Shown: positions 10,127 through 62,420 of the stretch, one piece after another
How positions within the stretch are numbered: position 1 is the first letter of the stretch
How the letters are laid out: each line of letters begins with the position of its first letter
NCBI GenBank assembly: GCA_024451685.1
Contig: JAMXCW010000002.1
Span: forward strand, 109,541-173,540
DNA length: 64,000 bases
Source of the DNA: Candidatus Bathyanammoxibius amoris
GTDB lineage: Bacteria; Planctomycetota; Brocadiia; Brocadiales; Bathyanammoxibiaceae
Direction: 5' to 3'
Translations under genes and position numbers: made by a program
The notes under the pieces: model-generated
Told to the model about the DNA's origin: nothing
What the model saw: only the letters and a program-made list of their open reading frames with translations
The model's database searches: none

Positions 10127-10165
10127 TGTGTACACCCCTCTCAAAAAGTCTCCTAATACCGCGTT

Positions 10166-10292
10166 GTCATTCTGAGTTTCTTGAGCGAAGAATCTGGCGT
10201 TTGTAGCGTTGGAGCTTGCTCCAACGTTGAGCGTGGCAGCAAGCTGCCACGCTACACCTTCTGCCGTTTCACTTCACGCCTGAGGCGGATGG
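10166..10292 (+). repeat. Hairpin-cassette repeat, family A copy 1
   Basis: The sequence is gtcattctgagtttcttgagcgaagaatctggcgtt-tgtagcg[ttggagcttgctccaa]cgttgagc[gtggcagcaagctgccac]gctaca... About 94 percent of it matches the reverse complement of 14135-14263 over the core of roughly 97 nt, by eye. More hairpins follow up to about 10395. Confidence 0.8.
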
Positions 10293-14134: not shown

Positions 14135-14263
14135 GAACAATTGTCCTCCTGAGGGAGTGAAACGACCGAAGGTGTAGCGTGGCAGCTTGCTGCCACGTTC
14201 AACGTTGGAGCAAGCTTCAACGCTACAAACGCCAGATTCTTCACTCAAAAAACTCAGAATGAC
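14135..14263 (-). repeat. Hairpin-cassette repeat, family A copy 2 (inverted relative to copy 1)
   Basis: The reverse complement reads gtcattctgagttttttgagtgaagaatctggcgtttgtagcgttgaagcttgctccaacgttgaacgtggcagcaagctgccacgctacaccttc..., matching 10166-10292. Confidence 0.8.
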
Positions 14264-14375
14264 ACTCTATGACATTTATAACAAGTAATTATATAAGACC
14301 TTTTCTCCACCCGCAAGATAAATCATTCAGGCGTAGCAGGTTATGCGCCGGCAAAATTCTGTGGGTACGGGTGCA

Positions 14376-47711: not shown

Positions 47712-47886
47712 CACCATTCCTCCCCAGGCCCAAGGCCCATTTCCCATATTATCTAAGAATTATCCGGCCAAAATGGGGTCCAAACTCGACCTTTACCCCT
47801 TCATAAACTACGTAATATATCAATATTTGCCATTTTTTAAAGACAAAAATAGTGAGAAAACCATAAAAAAAGGACACCGTTTCAGA

Positions 47887-48100
47887 AAATCCATCATAAT
47901 TCACCACCTGCCAGAAACTCCGTCACATTAAGCAACAAACGGCCGTTATTCGCCTTATTCCAATTGTCATAAAGGCGGCGCCCCGGTGTGCTTGTAGTGC
48001 CGTCGTCAGCCGGTGAACTATCAGACAGGGCCGCAATCCTGCCCCCGCCCAGCCTGGAGGTGGCAAGTATTATGTTGAGTCCCGTCTGCCACGCCCTTCT
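47887..48100 (-). pseudogene. Orphan 3' fragment of a paralog of the 62214-63122 gene (left copy of a 214-bp direct repeat)
   Basis: Nucleotides 47887-48100 match 62207-62420 with only about half a dozen mismatches by eye. The encoded peptide ...LNIILATSRLGGGRIAALSDSSPADDGTTSTPGRRLYDNWNKANNGRLLLNVTEFLAGGE is the C-terminus of the 302-aa protein. Nothing upstream is homologous. Confidence 0.85.
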
Positions 48101-53772: not shown

Positions 53773-55290
53773 TTAAGGAATAGCTTCTCCTTCCTGCTGT
53801 GGGGACTTTTCATCCAGGGGCATGGCCTCCTGCCCCACAGCCTCCTGGGCTGGGGGGAAGGCCTCTCCTTCAACGATTACCAGTTTAGTTTCCCGGATGA
53901 TCTCGTCTTCCGAGAAAGAAGTAGCTTCTCCTTCCTGCTGTGGGGACTTTTCATCCAGGGGCATGGCCTCCTGTCCCGCAGCCTCCTGGGCCGGGGGTGG
54001 GGCCTCTCCTTCAACGATTACCAGTTTAGTTTCCCGGATAATCTCGTCTTCCGAGAAAGAAGTAGCTTCTCCTTCCTGCTGTGGGGACTTTTCATCCAGG
54101 GGCACGGCCTCCTGTCCCACCGCCTCCTGGACCGGGGAGAAGGCCTCTCCTTCAACGATTACCAATTTAGTTTCCCGGATGATCTCATCTTCCGAGAGCG
54201 GGGATGTCCCGGCAGACCCCCCAAATACAGGCACCTGCACGCTAACAGGTATTACCTCTTCCTGAGAGGTTTCTTTCTGCGGTAAGGCCTGTGTCACCGG
54301 GCCTTCGGATTGAATCTTGGCGAGGGGTTCAGCCCTCAGCTCGTGGTGTCTGGCCATATGGCATTTACCGCAGACGTCATAGCTAAAACCTAGTTTGCTG
54401 AGCCTACCAGCCTCGTCCACCTTTCCCTGACTCATAAAATAGACGTAAAGCTGTCCGGGCCCGTGACAGGCCTCACAGGTGACACCTTCCTCTACATATT
54501 CGCCGGTCTCTTCATCGTACCCGGTGGTATGGCACTCGTAGCACTTCTTTCTGTACTCCTCATCACCTTGTATAAAGTCTTTTGCTTTTTTGACCCGTTC
54601 CATGGTGACAAACTTGTTGTCCTTCCAGCGGTCGATGTGCCAGGTGGTGAGGCCCTTGTGACACCTGACGCAGGCAGTGCTGCCCACGTAGACCGCCTTC
54701 TCGCCGGTTATGCTGTAATACTTGTAATCTGAGGCTTCCTGGCCCTCCTTGGGGGAAAGTTCGGCCAATCCCTTCCACAACTCCAGCACGGCATCAGCGG
54801 TGTCTATCCTGCCAATCATTTCTTTCCTGCTGGCATATAAGTGCTCATGGGCCCCCTCCAGTCGGAGGGATTCGCCCTGGCCACCGTGGCAGACCGTACA
54901 GCCGTAAATGTCGTAAGGTAAATAATCAAACGTCTTGGGGTGCAGTTCTTCTAATTTGTCCACATCTACATGACAGGTCATACACCTGTCCACCTTCTCT
55001 CCGTTTTCCCCATCCTTCCAACGTCCGCTGCCTTTAAGGAGTAACTGTTTTACCCCCACGGGGGGGTTTTTTAGGGCCGCAATCCTCTGTTTCAGCTTTT
55101 CTGCCATGACAGGATCCCCCCATTTAGGGTCGGACCACCTCTCCAGCTCGTGCTCTAGCCTGTCCACCTGTTCGGCATAAGCGACCTTCTGATAGCCCAC
55201 CCACTCGGGGTAGACTTCCCTGACAACCCAGAGGACAAGCAGGCCCAGCAAGACCACTGATAAGACAACAAAAGGTATCCTCCACAACAT
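53773..55290 (-). CDS. Membrane-anchored hexaheme cytochrome c with repetitive acidic C-terminal extension
   Basis: There is an N-terminal TM helix and six CxxCH motifs (CMTCH, CTVCH, CVRCH, CYECH, CEACH, CGKCH). The C-terminal roughly 140 aa are three 47-aa repeats. Confidence 0.85.
   Translation of the reverse strand: MLWRIPFVVLSVVLLGLLVLWVVREVYPEWVGYQKVAYAEQVDRLEHELERWSDPKWGDPVMAEKLKQRIAALKNPPVGVKQLLLKGSGRWKDGENGEKVDRCMTCHVDVDKLEELHPKTFDYLPYDIYGCTVCHGGQGESLRLEGAHEHLYASRKEMIGRIDTADAVLELWKGLAELSPKEGQEASDYKYYSITGEKAVYVGSTACVRCHKGLTTWHIDRWKDNKFVTMERVKKAKDFIQGDEEYRKKCYECHTTGYDEETGEYVEEGVTCEACHGPGQLYVYFMSQGKVDEAGRLSKLGFSYDVCGKCHMARHHELRAEPLAKIQSEGPVTQALPQKETSQEEVIPVSVQVPVFGGSAGTSPLSEDEIIRETKLVIVEGEAFSPVQEAVGQEAVPLDEKSPQQEGEATSFSEDEIIRETKLVIVEGEAPPPAQEAAGQEAMPLDEKSPQQEGEATSFSEDEIIRETKLVIVEGEAFPPAQEAVGQEAMPLDEKSPQQEGEAIP
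53776..54195 (-). repeat. In-frame tandem repeat, 3 x 141 bp (47 aa), inside the hexaheme cytochrome gene
   Basis: The unit is SEDEIIRETKLVIVEGEA(F/P)(S/P)P(V/A)QEA(V/A)GQEA(V/M)PLDEKSPQQEGEATSF. The unit boundaries are 54195/54054/53913/53776. The DNA copies are nearly identical. Confidence 0.9.
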
Positions 55291-57375: not shown

Positions 57376-59316
57376 CTACAAGATTTCCTCAAATTTCACC
57401 ATTGAGATGGCATCAACGGGACAGCGATAGCTACACAGTCCGCAGTGGATGCAAAGCTCCTCATCCTGTGTCAGCCCTACCCAGGGCCCATCACCTCCCG
57501 CACCATCCCATAGGGAAAACTCCTTCACCACTGACCCATCCAGATAGGCCATAGCGAGAGCCCTGGTGGGGCAGACGTCCACACAACCTCCGCAGAGGAT
57601 ACACTGCATCTCCTGCCTTTGCCCTATTACCGGGCTGACATTGCAGTTCAAGCACCGCCCGGCCTGGTCCTGGGCCTCGTACTCTGAGTAAGGTATCTCT
57701 GAGGCCTCCCATCCCTTGAGCCTTTCTTCGGGAGGCCGCAGGGTAGGATACTGCTTTGTCAGGGAGAGTCCGTAGTAGAACCTCTCAAATCTCCAGGTAA
57801 TGGGTATTGCCTCCATGTGCTCCTGTTTGCTCAGCCCCAGGGAGCCAACGCCTCCCAGATATTCATGCATGGACTGGGCGGCCAGCTGACCCGAAGCTAC
57901 TGCATTTATTACCAGACCCGGGCCCAGGATGTCGCCGCAGGCATAGACTCCGGGCTTGGAGGTGGCCAGGGTAACGGGGTCTACCTTTAGCATCTTCCTC
58001 TGGTTTAGCTCAAAACCCTGACTGCCGTCCAGGAAACTCATATCAGGGGCCTGACCCACAGCCAGGAGGATGTTGTCGCATTCTATGATGCGTTCTGTAC
58101 CCGGGACAAAGGTTGGGTTAAACCGGCCCTCTGAGTCATAAACATCGATTACATTTATCACCTCCAGACCCGCGACCCGGCCATCCTGACCCACCACCAC
58201 CCTCTTGGGGCCCCAGGAGGTGTTCATGATGATTCCTTCCTCACTAGCATCCACAACGTCGCCTATCCAGGCAGGCATCTCCTCCTTGAGGTTATCAGGT
58301 CTACAGCCCTTCATGGCCTCCAGGCATACAAGGTGCACCTCGCTGGTGGAGTCAATTCTCATTGCCGCCCTGGCTACATCGGTAGCCACGCATCCCCCTC
58401 CTATTACTACTACCTTCTCACCCAGAGTAAACTTTCGGTCAGTTGCTATGTCCCCTACGTCCATCAGGAAGTCCAACCCTGATAAAACCCCTGGCGTCTC
58501 CACTCCCGGGACGGGTACACCCCTCCCCTTCTGGAGACCCACCGCGATAAGAACTGCGCCAAACTCCTCCTTGAGCTGGTCAAGGCTGAAGTCCTTTCCG
58601 CAGGCCTGATTAAGTTTCAGCTTTATGGGCAAAGAGAGTATGGACTCCACGTCCTTCCTCACTGCCTCTCTATCCAATCTGAAGAAGGGTAGCGCATTGG
58701 CAGGCATACCACCAGGATTACTGCCGGCCTCATAGAGCGTTACCTCGTAACCCATGAGTATCAGGTCATGGGCGGCCGAAAGGCCGGCGGGCCCCGCACC
58801 AATTATCGCCATCCGAGCCGGGACGAGCTTGGGAGACTCCCTCTTCACCACTGCAGGCTTCACCTTTCCCATCTTCTGCCTTATCCAACGATAAACCTCC
58901 CCAGTACTCAGGTGGTTGTTTTTTACGGCAAAATCCTTCAGGCCCCTTATGCTTACCGCCTCGTCCACCTTGCCCCTCTGGCAGGCCGACTCACAGGGCG
59001 CACCACAGACCTTAGCGCAGACGGCAACAAAGGGATTATTCCTCCTGGCAATCAGATAGGCCTCCTGGTACCTACCTTCATCAATGGCCATCACGTAGCC
59101 CCTTGCATTGGTGCCAGACGGACAGGTGCGGCGACAGGGCACATTCTCACGAAACCATTCCTTGTCCACAGAAGTGGCTACCGGTGTGTCAGTCAGCACA
59201 GATTGCCGTGCGGCCTCCAGATGCCTGGCCCTCATCTGGGAGAGCTCATCTAGAGATATTGAGAAGTCGCGCTCCTTGAAGCTTATTGTTATAGAATTAG
59301 CAGACTCTCCGCTCAT
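57376..59316 (-). CDS. NAD(P)H-dependent FAD oxidoreductase (glutamate synthase small subunit GltD/NfnB-like) fused to a C-terminal 2x[4Fe-4S] ferredoxin domain
   Basis: The N-terminal FeS region is CPSGTNARGY...CAKVCGAPCESAC. The FAD motif is IIGAGPAGLSAAHDL and the NAD(P) motif is VVVIGGGCVATDVA. The C-terminal clusters are CLNCN...CILCGGCVDVCP and CIHCGLCSYRCP. There is no signal peptide or TM helix. Confidence 0.88.
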   Translation of the reverse strand: MSGESANSITISFKERDFSISLDELSQMRARHLEAARQSVLTDTPVATSVDKEWFRENVPCRRTCPSGTNARGYVMAIDEGRYQEAYLIARRNNPFVAVCAKVCGAPCESACQRGKVDEAVSIRGLKDFAVKNNHLSTGEVYRWIRQKMGKVKPAVVKRESPKLVPARMAIIGAGPAGLSAAHDLILMGYEVTLYEAGSNPGGMPANALPFFRLDREAVRKDVESILSLPIKLKLNQACGKDFSLDQLKEEFGAVLIAVGLQKGRGVPVPGVETPGVLSGLDFLMDVGDIATDRKFTLGEKVVVIGGGCVATDVARAAMRIDSTSEVHLVCLEAMKGCRPDNLKEEMPAWIGDVVDASEEGIIMNTSWGPKRVVVGQDGRVAGLEVINVIDVYDSEGRFNPTFVPGTERIIECDNILLAVGQAPDMSFLDGSQGFELNQRKMLKVDPVTLATSKPGVYACGDILGPGLVINAVASGQLAAQSMHEYLGGVGSLGLSKQEHMEAIPITWRFERFYYGLSLTKQYPTLRPPEERLKGWEASEIPYSEYEAQDQAGRCLNCNVSPVIGQRQEMQCILCGGCVDVCPTRALAMAYLDGSVVKEFSLWDGAGGDGPWVGLTQDEELCIHCGLCSYRCPVDAISMVKFEEIL

Positions 59317-59522
59317 ATCTTTCCTCTATTAGAAAAAAGAGACTGTTACCATCCACCATCTTTAGAGAAAGATCAGGACACGCTACTTTGCAGGATGGGG
59401 TAGACGTTGAAGGACCGGCGGCTACTGCCATACCGCTGGCAATGCCGGATTGCTGAAGGTAGCTTCGCCTACTAGTCCTCATTATCCTTCCTGCTATTTT
59501 AAGGTGAGGTTTTTGTTACAAT
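59275..59522 (-). repeat. Leader/5'-CDS repeat unit, copy 1 (functional copy, upstream of and overlapping the first 42 nt of the oxidoreductase gene)
   Basis: It aligns by eye along its whole length with 60160-60417, and its distal 100 nt align with 60063-60159. Confidence 0.85.
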
Positions 59523-60057
59523 CTTACCGGCCATACTGTGTGGCAAGCTTATTTGTGCGTGCCACCAGCTTCGCCTCCCCAGAGGCTACATGTGCTCTAT
59601 GCCTCCGGGTGGACATGGACCGACCCGGTATCTTACATGCACACCGCTTCAACTCCTTAAACCCGAACCGTACACGCTTTACTACTATGCGCCGTTTCGA
59701 CGGGCCTAGAACTTTACAGAAGCGGCGTCCTTAAGAATCTCCTTGTCCAGAGACAGGTCCGCCACCAGACGTTTAAGACGGGTGTTCTCATACTCAAGCT
59801 CCTTCAGACGCTTGCCCTGATCTACCTTCAGGCCACCGTATTCCCTGCGCCACCGGTAATACGTTTGCTCCGCGATTCCGAGCTTGCGTGCAATATGTCC
59901 AACCGTCTTTCCCTGAGATAGCTCCATCTTTGCTTCTTCAAGTCTGTGGATTATCTGGTCTACTGTATATCTCTTGCGACTCACAACTCCCCACTTCTTC
60001 TGATCCAATTTAACTCCAAAGACTGACATTAAAACTGGACCGATTTAAAGGAGGCAG
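59523..60057 (-). mobile_element. IS3-family insertion sequence remnant (orfA intact-looking, orfB truncated after about 60 codons)
   Basis: The OrfA 59706-60029 reads ...SRKRYTVDQIIHRLEEAKMELSQGKTVGHIARKLGIAEQTYYRWRREYGGLKVDQGKRLKELEYENTRLKRLVADLSLDKEILK, an HTH plus leucine zipper typical of IS3 OrfA. The downstream -1 frame reads CKIPGRSMSTRRHRAHVASGEAKLVARTNKLATQYGR (like an OrfB N-terminus) and stops at the junction with repeat copy 1. No DDE domain is present. Confidence 0.8.
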
Positions 60058-60062
60058 ATCGC

Positions 60063-60159
60063 TACCATACCGCAGGCAATGCCGAACTGCTGAAGGTAGC
60101 TTCGCCTACTAGCCCTCATTATCACTCCTGCCATTTTAAGGTGAGGTTCTTGTTATGAT
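60063..60159 (-). repeat. Leader repeat unit, copy 2 (distal part only; proximal part replaced by the IS3 remnant)
   Basis: ctaccataccgcaggcaatgccgaactgctgaaggtagcttcgcctactagccctcattatcactcctgccattttaaggtgaggttcttgttatgatc aligns with 59424-59522. Confidence 0.85.
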
Positions 60160-60417
60160 CTTGAAATTAGTGTTACAGAGTTAGCACAGGCCCTTTGTCT
60201 ATATCTTCCTTGTTAGAAAATGAGACTGTTACCATTTCACTATCTTTGAGAAGGTTAGAACATGTTAGTTTAAAGTTAGAATACGTTACTTTGTGGGAGG
60301 GGGTAGGCGTAGACGTTGAAAAACCACGGGTTACTGCCATACCACAGGCAATACCAGACCATCGAAGGTAGCTTCGCCTACTAGCCCTCATTATCATTCC
60401 TGCCATTTTAAGGTGTT
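60160..60417 (-). repeat. Leader/5'-CDS repeat unit, copy 3 (degenerate; start codon mutated to ATA)
   Basis: On the minus strand, GATATAGACAAAGGGCCTGTGCTAACTCTGTAACACTAATTTCAAG aligns with GATATGAGCGGAGAGTCTGCTAATTCTATAACAATAAGCTTCAAG of the real gene start. The rest aligns with copy 1, apart from an insertion of about 20 nt. Confidence 0.85.
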
Positions 60418-61170
60418 TTTGTCGTGATATACCGTAAAACAGCCTAGTTTTACGACAATCAGCGGCAGTTATACACCATTTGTCGTAACAACCAACATGT
60501 GATATGTCGGTGAGATTTTATCGCAACTATACCACACAAAAAGGTGTTTGCAAGAACTTTTTAAGAAAATTTTAGGGAGGGGAAACTTGCTTACCAACTT
60601 AAAGAGGATCGTAATAGTAGCCCTCTTTGTTATCAATTTATGTTCGAATAACTTATTCTAATCAAACAGTAACATAGTACGATGCAGGATAACAACCCAA
60701 TGCGTACGGCAATCAGGCACTGCTAAGACTTTGAATTGGCCATTAATCGGGCTTTGCCGATATAAGCCGTGTCAATGGCAAACCTCAAACCTGCGCTCGT
60801 ACAAAATTCTGTCAGCAGTTTTATCCATAAGTTCATTCCCACATGTCAGACACTCTCTGCTGGACATACAAATCTTGTATATGTAATTGAAAGCTTGCGA
60901 GATTAAATATGGGGCCACAAAAACATGTAGTTGAAATAAAACGGGAATCTAAGATTACTATATTTTTCTCCTACCCGGCTTTTTTTTGACAAACACTTTT
61001 TTGTGGTAAACTTCTGACCAGTTTGATAACCTCTTGCTTATGGCCTTTAAGAGATAGGCGCATAGATGGGCAATGGAAGGCCTGATGGTGTGCCGCCAAT
61101 CCTTGGCACACTTATTTTTGTGTTCTCTGCACTGAGCTTCTTAACTCACCGGCAGGTGTGAGGTGCGACG

Positions 61171-62205
61171 ATGCAGGACCGGACAGGGCCTGGTAGATAT
61201 TTGACCCTTTTCACAATAACGGCAATTATCCTGTTTTGCCTTCAGGATGCCCAGGCACAGGATGCACAGAAGTCTTTCAACACCGGAAAAGCCCTACTCA
61301 AGCAGCGAAGGTATGAGGATGCACTTATCCACTTTAACAAGACGCTGGAGATTGAACCAGGGTTTGCCACAGCATGGAACGAAAAAGGCACGGTCTTTCT
61401 CAAATTGGGCAGGTACTGGGAGGCGATTGAATGCTTTGACAAGGCACTGAAGATTAACCTAAGCTACGCCGAGGCATGGCATAACAAGGGCAAGGGCTTT
61501 GACAACTTGGGCAGGTATCAGAGGGGCATTAAATGCTACAATAAGGCATTGAAGATTAACCCACGCTACGCCGAGGCATGGTACAGCAAGGGAGCGTCCC
61601 TGTTCGCGCTGGGCTACAAGAACGGCGCAACCCAGTACGCGGCACGCTTGTATCAGGAGGCCTTTGAATGTAGCGACAAGGCGCTGGAGATGGACCCAAA
61701 GCTTGCCGAGGGATGGCTCAACAGGGGCTTTGCCGGCGTCGAACTAGGCAGCTATAAAGAAGGCATTGGAGGCGACAACAAGGCACTTAAGACTGATCCA
61801 AGGTACGCCGAGGCATGGTACGGCCAGTGCATGGAGCTGGGTAGCCAGGGCAGTTATCAGGATGCCATTGACTACTACGACAAGGCACTGGAGATAAACC
61901 CAAAGGACGCTGGAGCATGGTATAAAAAGGGCGTGGCACTAGGTAACCTGCGCAGGTATCAAGAAGCTATTGAATGCTATGACAAAATACTGGAGATTGA
62001 CCCAAAGAATACATACGCGTGGAGCAATAAGGGCTGGGTCCTGGCCAGGATGGGCAGACCGCCTGAAAAAGAATTTGCCTGCTACGAAAAAGCATTAGAG
62101 ATAGACCCAAAGCATGTCCCTGCGTGGAGCACAAACGGCGCACCCCTGTCAGAACTGCCTCGATATATAGAGGTAGAAAAGGCCGCCATGGGTGTGAAGA
62201 GATAG
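61171..62205 (+). CDS. Secreted TPR-repeat protein
   Basis: A signal-like N-terminus is followed by about eight or nine canonical 34-aa TPR units (YxEAIECYDKALEINPKxAxAW repeated). Confidence 0.8.
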   Translation: MQDRTGPGRYLTLFTITAIILFCLQDAQAQDAQKSFNTGKALLKQRRYEDALIHFNKTLEIEPGFATAWNEKGTVFLKLGRYWEAIECFDKALKINLSYAEAWHNKGKGFDNLGRYQRGIKCYNKALKINPRYAEAWYSKGASLFALGYKNGATQYAARLYQEAFECSDKALEMDPKLAEGWLNRGFAGVELGSYKEGIGGDNKALKTDPRYAEAWYGQCMELGSQGSYQDAIDYYDKALEINPKDAGAWYKKGVALGNLRRYQEAIECYDKILEIDPKNTYAWSNKGWVLARMGRPPEKEFACYEKALEIDPKHVPAWSTNGAPLSELPRYIEVEKAAMGVKR

Positions 62206-62206
62206 A

Positions 62207-62420
62207 GAATCCATCAGAATTCACCACCTGCCAGAAACTCCGTCACATTAAGCAACAAACGGCCGTTATTCGCCTTATTCCAATTGTCATAAAGGCGGCG
62301 CCCCGGTGTGCTTGTGGTGCCGTCGTCAGCCGGTGAACTGTCGGACAGGGCCGCAATCCTGCCCCCGCCCAGCCTGGAGGTGGCAAGTATTATGTTGAGT
62401 TCCGTCTGCCGCGCCCCTTT
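62207..62420 (-). repeat. Right copy of the 214-bp direct repeat (3' end of the intact 62214-63122 gene)
   Basis: See 47887-48100. The two copies have the same orientation and lie 14.3 kb apart. Confidence 0.85.

Follow-up and report, generated by a model that had tools for sequence, protein, structure and literature searches.

The leader of a Rieske/cytochrome b operon in a 64,000-nucleotide (nt) stretch of DNA from Candidatus Bathyanammoxibius amoris (assembly GCA_024451685.1, contig JAMXCW010000002.1, positions 109,541 to 173,540; hereafter the window) carries a scar in which tandem copies of a repeat unit are interrupted by the remnant of an IS3-family insertion sequence (IS). The unit joins part of the leader to the 14 opening codons of the oxidoreductase gene, which is the first gene of the operon. 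We consider it probable that this scar is old and inherited, that the operon is transcribed through it as one long leader from a promoter lying upstream of the array, and that it has mostly drifted neutrally, the exception being one IS gene, orfA, which purifying selection keeps intact. The scar itself is of an ordinary kind, made up of duplication, IS insertion, deletion and gene conversion. It rises slightly above the routine on two points, namely that it is shared across species in the leader of a key anammox-type respiratory operon, and that it includes a solo IS3 orfA under purifying selection. Current understanding is not overturned by any of this. The features are listed in Table 1, and all coordinates of the array refer to the minus strand within the window.

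A repeat array shared between species

The repeat unit is approximately 250 nt long and, read on the minus strand toward the gene, the parts follow one another as copy 3, copy 2 (only its 5' ~100 nt), the IS3-family remnant and copy 1. A repeat search produced one direct-repeat family (59397-59506, 60034-60143 and 60306-60415), and a 31-nt core, ATAATGAGGGCTAGTAGGCGAAGCTACCTTC, occurred three times at one mismatch or fewer and not at all in 100 shuffled sequences. When the copies were compared with MAFFT and self-BLAST, copies 1 and 3 were ~72% identical over 271 columns, with 83% identity in the first 110 nt, and copy 2 was 88-90% identical to the 5' 100 nt of both. The copies are thus colinear and head to tail, share a common junction and resemble one another above chance, which is the pattern of a tandem segmental duplication. 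These analyses agree with the initial annotation, which had described three tandem copies including the first 42 coding nt and had placed them correctly; the colinear repeats that it predicted for a self-comparison were found. It had also described copy 3 as complete but degenerate, with the ATG changed to ATA and an insertion of about 20 nt, and in the alignment copy 3 does have ATA at 60202-60200 where copy 1 has ATG (59316-59314), along with one insertion of ~21 nt and another of 6 nt. Tandem Repeats Finder returned no rows for the array, because the array is both interrupted and diverged.

Table 1. Features of the operon leader and of the first operon gene, with positions in the window.
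Feature	Position	Strand	Description
Sigma-70-like promoter	60526..60553	minus	TTGCAA-16 nt-TG.TATAGT (TG-extended); from promoter scan; putative operon promoter
Copy 3	60160..60417	minus	complete, degenerate; orthologous copy in L001, L005, L014, L016, L017
Upstream open reading frame (ORF), copy 3	60173..60406	minus	77 aa; counterpart of copy 1 ORF
Possible stem-loop, copy 3 counterpart	60389-60375 with 60315-60296	minus	
Copy 2	60058..60159	minus	5' ~100 nt only; ended by IS insertion
IS3-family remnant	59523..60057	minus	left end starting TG, orfA, orfB N-terminal fragment; DDE domain and right inverted repeat gone
orfA	59706..59984	minus	92-aa IS3 OrfA-type helix-turn-helix (HTH) protein; HTH_Tnp_1
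orfB N-terminal fragment	59523..59718	minus, -1 frame	~64 codons, ending ...ATQYGR and a stop at 59523; frame open
Copy 1	59275..59522	minus	proximal leader; ribosome-binding site GAGGAAAG; first 14 codons of the real gene
Upstream ORF, copy 1	59297..59482	minus	61 aa, MRTSRRSYLQQSGIASGMAV...; Tat-signal-like; overlaps gene start by 20 nt
Possible RNA stem-loop, copy 1	59393..59480	minus	5' arm GAGGACTAGTAGGCG (59480-59466) complementary to 3' arm CGTCTACCCCATCC (59406-59393)
Oxidoreductase gene, first in operon	57376..59316	minus	646 aa; GltD-like FAD/NAD(P) and Fe-S domains

Related sequences are designated here by handles (L001 and so on) where they must be told apart. L007 (GCA_020555905.1) and L008 (ENA ERZ23500248) are colinear with the window over 60700-59200, with 12 substitutions in 1501 nt (99.2% identity), and a metagenome-assembled genome (MAG) of a 'Candidatus Brocadiales bacterium' encodes a protein with 100% identity to the oxidoreductase of the window. 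L001 and L005 represent other species, whose oxidoreductases are 81-82% identical to that of the window, and they contain the same parts in the same order with the same junctions. Three short contigs, L014, L016 and L017, have the architecture of the window, with one extra complete unit in the array of L017 (L017 1-895); like L001 and L005, they belong to Brocadiales lineages. Seven sequences (the window, L001, L005 and L014-L017) have one and the same junction where copy 2 meets the IS, in keeping with the earlier description of a copy 2 that retains only its distal part before the IS3-family element begins, and the window, L001 and L005 also share an identical deletion junction, at which TATGGCCGGTAAGA meets the unit. 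The fourth species, L006 (76% identical), is without the IS, yet has the same unit junction, in which ...TTTAAG is followed by ACTGTAGCAAAAACC; across the window, L001, L005 and L006 this unit-to-unit junction takes the form ...TTYAAG followed by AYYRTARCAARAACC. L006 has two full units that differ by 1 mismatch over a 255-nt period, a recent re-duplication, and its leader also contains a 52-codon and a 31-codon fragment of the 5' end of the gene. The more distant orthologous operons L002, L009, L010 and L012 (58-63% identical) have neither the IS nor the array, and their leaders are single and 130-250 nt long, that of L010 bearing a 62-nt tandem duplication of its own. Comparison of orthologous loci, as had been proposed with the initial annotation, separates near relatives, which share the array, from distant orthologues with a single leader. 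When JGI metagenome contigs were scanned for exact matches to the unit core, 0 were found. Judged from this distribution the scar is old and vertically inherited, far older than a recent local accident would be; its age follows from its being shared by species that differ at synonymous sites by 0.2-0.35 substitutions per site (dS).

IS3-family elements are recognized by terminal inverted repeats of the form 5'-TG...CA-3' and by a 3-4 bp target duplication. In the window, the TG of the left end lies at 60057 and the right end is deleted. The product of orfA matches HTH_Tnp_1 (PF01527) with an E value of 1.7e-17 and the NCBIfam model NF033516 (transpos_IS3) with an E value of 8e-14, the latter as a partial match over model positions 8-83 only, under the whole-protein cut-off. 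Its start codon is GTG in the window and ATG in the relatives, and in-frame upstream starts at 60008 and 60029 are possible. The relatives of OrfA are 92 aa long and 65-74% identical, and OrfA keeps every residue that is invariant among those aligned, including the conserved leucine-rich C-terminal part. Since the orfB fragment gave no Pfam match and the rve catalytic domain was not found, the window holds a remnant and not an element; a second copy of the IS was sought within the window and none was found. That orfB is cut at the boundary of copy 1 had been noticed before, and the fragment does stop at 59523, a few nt from copy 1. No A-rich slippery heptamer that could signal a -1 frameshift was seen at the end of orfA (TCT GTA AAG TTC TAG). 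Canonical OrfA relatives, compared as protein only, end in ...SKNF or ...GNF. The window copy thus resembles the IS3-family elements IS911, IS2, IS3 and IS150 in its HTH_Tnp_1 orfA, its orfB in the -1 frame and its TG left end, and differs from them in being immobile, in having lost the rve domain and the right inverted repeat, in being fixed at one orthologous site in several species and in showing no visible slippery heptamer.

The history of the array can be proposed in some detail. A piece of ~250 nt, made up of 14 codons from the gene start and the distal two-thirds of the leader, would have been tandemly duplicated in an ancestor of at least four species; because the unit junction is present in the IS-free L006, the duplication came first and the IS insertion later. 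The copies would then have exchanged sequence by gene conversion, with their number shifting by unequal recombination. One site of the unit reads C, C, C across the paralogous copies of the window, A, A, A in L001, C, C, C in L005 and A, A in L006, and variants of this kind, which are specific to a species and common to its paralogous copies, show concerted evolution through gene conversion. Before the lineages of the window, L001 and L005 separated, an IS3-family element probably entered the middle copy, and a later deletion would have taken the catalytic portion of its transposase together with the right end of the IS and what was left of the middle copy, stopping a few bases from the next unit. 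The undeleted IS of L015 shows which part was deleted elsewhere: across copy 2 and the IS, L015 and L005 share 97% identity and an identical insertion junction, and the IS of L015 (L015 441-946) continues past ...CAGTATGG into HTH_21 (E value 5e-14) and the first part of rve; its orfB has a 1-nt insertion in the N-terminal part. A search for microhomology that might explain why the deletion ends at the unit boundary found only short matches (AAG, AAGAT and CCGGT-like), nothing convincing for a recurrent deletion. A history in which a segment was duplicated, an IS3 element entered the middle copy and a deletion ran up to the boundary of copy 1 had been suggested before on the window alone, and the shared junctions, L006 and L015 speak for the same history.

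As in other tandem duplications that evolve by unequal recombination and gene conversion, the copies are head to tail with a shared junction, carry species-specific variants and differ in copy number, and L006 adds a near-identical recent re-duplication. The locus differs from other tandem segmental duplications in that what is repeated is not a whole gene but a leader with the start of one, and in that one copy is interrupted by an IS. It serves as an example of a leader array that changes by unequal recombination and gene conversion.

Some further changes were seen in the leaders of the relatives. In L001 there is a ~170-nt insertion within copy 1 (L001 5547-5715), between the conserved CGTCTACCCC block and the ribosome-binding region, which is absent from the window and L005. 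The IS-free leader of L006 has independently grown to ~1.3 kb, and a fragment of the gene for HPr, the phosphocarrier of the phosphotransferase system (PF00381, E value 1.5e-6), lies at L006 5572-5865 between two duplicated oxidoreductase 5' fragments.

The promoter and the signals carried by the unit

A promoter scan found one sigma-70-like site of the region that is conserved between species, and only one, with a TTGCAA -35 and a TATAGT -10 hexamer. It lies ~110 nt upstream of copy 3, outside the unit. In the window, L001, L005 and L006 the block AAAAAGTTCTTGCAAA...GTGTGGTATAG does not vary, whereas the spacer does. Promoters of this kind (TTGCAW-16/17-TAYAAT, read by eye) are also found in the distant orthologous operons, 130-250 nt from the ATG. 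The scan found no promoter-like site within any unit, and no terminator-like sites were found on the minus strand of the region. Consensus matches and their conservation thus show a predicted operon promoter upstream of the array and not within the unit, contrary to the initial annotation, which had named the promoter as part of the unit and had allowed for up to three copies of whatever promoter or 5'-UTR signal the unit carries. Since the scan found no promoter-like site in the unit and the conserved site stands upstream, the array is probably a transcribed leader of ~1.2 kb and not a set of three promoters. Most likely, the array and the IS remnant would be transcribed together from the upstream promoter, and copy 1 would supply only the ribosome-binding site and the start codon. 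A scarred leader of this length, if it is read from a single upstream promoter, would matter for annotation, for the reading of transcriptomes and for expression work.

What the unit itself might contribute was considered from several sides. The alternative that fares best, although we think it unlikely, is that a stem-loop of ~90 nt, in which GAGGG..GUAGGCG pairs with CGUCUAC..CCCUC round a variable hairpin, has been selected as a cis-regulatory or mRNA-stabilising leader RNA, in which case complete copies would persist, and the proximal copy would stay intact beside the gene, for the sake of the stem-loop. The two longest invariant runs of the unit (GAGGG..GTAGGCG and CGTCTAC..CCCTC) are indeed mutually complementary, and the closing helix is present in the minimum-free-energy fold of 9 of 9 segments of ~100 nt (7 of them distinct; window copy 1 not included), with z scores of -1.5 to -3.2 against mononucleotide shuffles. 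The 6-nt insertion of copy 3 creates CGCCTAC, a perfect complement of GTAGGCG, copy 1 of L005 has 3-nt insertions in both arms, and the distant orthologous operons, in their single leaders, again contain the motifs TTGCCTGTGGT and GAAGCTACCT. However, covariation is uninformative: helix 1 is 100% paired and never varies, helix 2 (the central hairpin) has one compensatory pair, the shuffle control is not exceeded (117/500) and alifold gives a covariation term of -0.28 kcal/mol. The fold of the entire copy 1 is no better than that of shuffled sequences (z = -1.45), and Rfam had no match to positions 58800-61200 at E<=1. The likeness of paralogous blocks such as the 5' halves can be explained by gene conversion alone, and between orthologues the 5' half of the unit is 0.84-0.86 identical, barely over the neutral 0.82. 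A structured leader element, as modeled by these folds, is a reasonable but unproven rival of the long, mostly neutral leader.

It is improbable that each unit has a promoter or regulatory signal of its own, so that the triplication multiplies the control inputs and the copy 1 promoter drives the gene. Every unit does have a -10-like hexamer, TAAAAT in CACCTTAAAATGG, and within this operon family L006 and L010 (62-nt tandem) have each duplicated leader sequence independently, but by eye there is no acceptable -35 at 16-18 nt from TAAAAT. The blank scan within the units and the cross-species conservation of the upstream promoter also argue against it, as do the lost start codon of copy 3 and the truncation of copy 2.

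Slightly less probable again is that the unit encodes a leader peptide resembling a twin-arginine translocation (Tat) signal (MRxSRRxYLQQSGIAxGMAV...), with translation of the upstream ORF coupling or tuning the expression of the operon. A Shine-Dalgarno-like AGGA, an ATG and an RR-x-(Y/F/I)-(L/I) motif are found in 11 of 11 copies, the TIGR01409 model gave an E value of 0.03, some indels keep the frame (3 nt in copy 1 of L005, 6 nt in window copy 3) and the upstream ORF of copy 1 ends 20 nt inside the gene. Against this, substitutions fall evenly by codon position (17:19:18 over 29 codons in 11 copies), and frame and stop vary between the copies, which encode 37-77 aa, with frameshifts in copies 1 and 2 of L001. 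The TIGR01409 score for copy 1 was 14.7 bits against a cut-off of 16.7, and copy 3 had no match. The peptide has neither a signal-peptidase-type AxA site nor a mature domain, the real gene of L006 has no preceding upstream ORF, and the peptide is absent from distant orthologous leaders. In a search of 5.8 billion proteins the sole homologue was another copy of the unit, and no larger protein with this N-terminus was found. A Tat signal (SRRSYL with a hydrophobic stretch) was accordingly rejected as the main explanation, by the codon-position count, the sub-threshold hidden Markov model score, the unconserved frames and the peptide search, and the upstream ORF is probably not a conserved coding sequence. 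The leader peptides SecM, MifM and VemP are likewise short upstream ORFs resembling export signals ahead of a gene start, which in the window is overlapped; the unit differs from them in showing no coding constraint, no conserved arrest motif and no conserved frame or stop, so that this is a resemblance only and not membership of that group.

Two other possible signals were observed in the leaders of this operon family or upstream of them. At 60601-60628 on the minus strand, ~50 nt upstream of the -35, there is a hairpin-like inverted repeat, AAAGAGG-N14-CCTCTTT, conserved in four species, which could be the binding site of a regulator or the terminator of an upstream transcript. In the leaders of L010 (2355-2490), L009, L012 and L002, the motif TGCCTGTGGT occurs ~85 nt before the ATG, together with several TGCCTA boxes, and may be a conserved regulatory site of the operon family; the 62-nt tandem duplication of L010 covers this TGCCTGTGGT/TGCCTA part of the leader.

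Selection on orfA

In order to compare the parts of the scar with neutral expectation, the neighboring genes were taken as the benchmark, with an identity of 0.82 at four-fold sites and dS of 0.22-0.35. The ratio of nonsynonymous to synonymous rates (omega) was 0.30-0.41 for the oxidoreductase and 0.35-0.45 for the Rieske and tetratricopeptide repeat (TPR) genes. The leader segments in the three-species alignment were 0.71-0.86 identical with 47 gap events in ~1200 columns, which is roughly neutral, and the alignment thus shows most of the scar to be drifting in an apparently neutral manner. In the same alignment orfA was 0.87 identical and had 0 gap events in 300 columns, where ~12 were expected (Poisson P ~8e-6). 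Omega for orfA ranged from 0.22 to 0.66 in 15 pairwise comparisons covering six lineages and was significantly less than 1 in most of them; pooled over three independent sister pairs it was 0.37 (p=0.0025). None of 12 strain-level differences fell within orfA. The adjoining orfB fragment had an omega of 1.28 (window against L001), which is neutral despite its open frame. As estimated from these rates, orfA is shown to be kept intact under purifying selection while the IS is dead, and the locus exemplifies the decay of an IS domain by domain, with one of its genes kept by selection after the death of the element.

The view that everything including orfA is neutral junk, with orfA intact by chance, is very improbable on these figures. 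The species are close (dS 0.2-0.35), a simulated ORF of 100 codons stays open in 16-38% of cases at 6.5-13% divergence, and the remainder of the scar is neutral, all of which would favor it; it does not readily account for a frame that is open in six lineages without indels, for values of omega so often below 1, or for the contrast with the orfB fragment beside it. An assembly artefact, whether a collapsed or a chimeric repeat, is next to impossible, since three strain-group assemblies (the colinear L007 and L008 among them) and several lineages from separate projects (NCBI, ENA and Logan) agree in the order of the parts and in the junctions, even though assemblers struggle at this place and the short contigs L014-L017 of related MAGs break exactly at the unit core; the possibility had been raised with the initial annotation and did not hold.

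Several points weigh against an old inherited scar that is read from one upstream promoter and drifts neutrally outside orfA. Real genes in these genomes also have a high omega, as the oxidoreductase illustrates, and the contrast between orfA and neutrality rests on ~90 codons. Among paralogous copies the unit is better conserved in its core than elsewhere, so more than orfA may be functional. The model of a single promoter and a long leader rests on consensus motifs and conservation, and Planctomycetota may use promoters that escape the scan. Lastly, the deletion defies a simple tree: L015 is closest to L005 (orfA dS 0.08) yet is undeleted, and the deletion junction is identical in the window, L001 and L005. 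This conflict might reflect a second, paralogous array, which is conceivable given that L006 has its whole operon tandemly duplicated, an exchange of the deleted allele by recombination, or a rearrangement mediated by the IS.

As to what orfA might do, read-through from the operon promoter probably still yields OrfA, and the protein probably binds DNA in trans, its most plausible role being that of a repressor of related IS3 elements. The InsA protein of IS2 and the OrfA protein of IS911 bind the ends of their elements and down-regulate transposition. It is also conceivable, although quite unlikely, that the Rieske/cytochrome b operon has recruited OrfA as its regulator. Encoded within the 1.2-kb leader, beside the retained left end of the IS to which OrfA proteins normally bind, OrfA could then act as an autoregulated roadblock or switch on read-through into the respiratory genes, and the stem-loop of the unit might add a second cis element. 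The remnant is immobile and occupies an orthologous site in several species, and its orfA is under purifying selection, as is expected of a domesticated gene. Like domesticated DNA-binding genes derived from transposases, it has lost mobility, has a fixed orthologous position and retains a DNA-binding module under selection; it differs from them in that any host role of OrfA is putative, since it may be a mere trans-repressor of IS3 copies, and in the shallow divergence sampled here (dS up to 0.37). A literature search for a solo IS3 orfA under selection found nothing directly relevant.

The operon and the wider window

According to Pfam domains, the oxidoreductase gene is followed in the operon by genes for a Rieske protein, cytochrome b, a subunit IV-like partner and multihaem cytochromes. 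The set and order of genes (oxidoreductase, Rieske, N- and C-terminal parts of cytochrome b, multihaem c and octahaem-type cytochrome) are those of the anammox-type operon, and synteny of the operon extends to L005, L006, L009, L010 and L012. This operon type, encoding a Rieske/cytochrome b complex with an NAD(P) oxidoreductase subunit, has been described (PMC12954380). The Kuenenia complexes Kuste4569-4574 and Kustd1480-1485 have the same genes, namely those for a GltD-like FAD/Fe-S oxidoreductase, a Rieske protein, a split cytochrome b, multihaem c and a Multi-haem_cyto protein of octahaem type (PMC12954380); the present finding differs in that it concerns the non-coding leader and not the enzymes. 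Rieske/cytochrome b complexes with an NAD(P) oxidoreductase are central to anammox-type energy metabolism yet poorly understood.

Over the first 117 nt of the oxidoreductase gene (59200-59316), identity between species reaches 93-95%, compared with 82% at four-fold sites. This conservation reflects either constraint at the nucleotide level or conversion with duplicated gene starts, of which L006 has two extra fragments. The whole operon is tandemly duplicated in L006.

A 213-nt direct repeat (47884-48096 and 62204-62416; 96.7% identical) brackets a 14.3-kb block that contains the TPR gene, the leader array and the complete Rieske/cytochrome b operon and, further downstream, three more genes. 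A contig of L007 joins window positions 49569->47884 directly to 62416->56402 across this repeat, which suggests a different arrangement or a segmental duplication in the L007 strain. Within the operon, the 3' part of a multihaem cytochrome gene (53773-55290) contains about three tandem 141-nt repeats (53775-54197; 93% identical) that encode a repeated module, SFSEDEIIRETKLVIVEGEA...PLDEKSPQQEGEA. Elsewhere in the window, a 109-nt inverted repeat (10165-10273 and 14156-14264; 94.5% identical) flanks ~4 kb.

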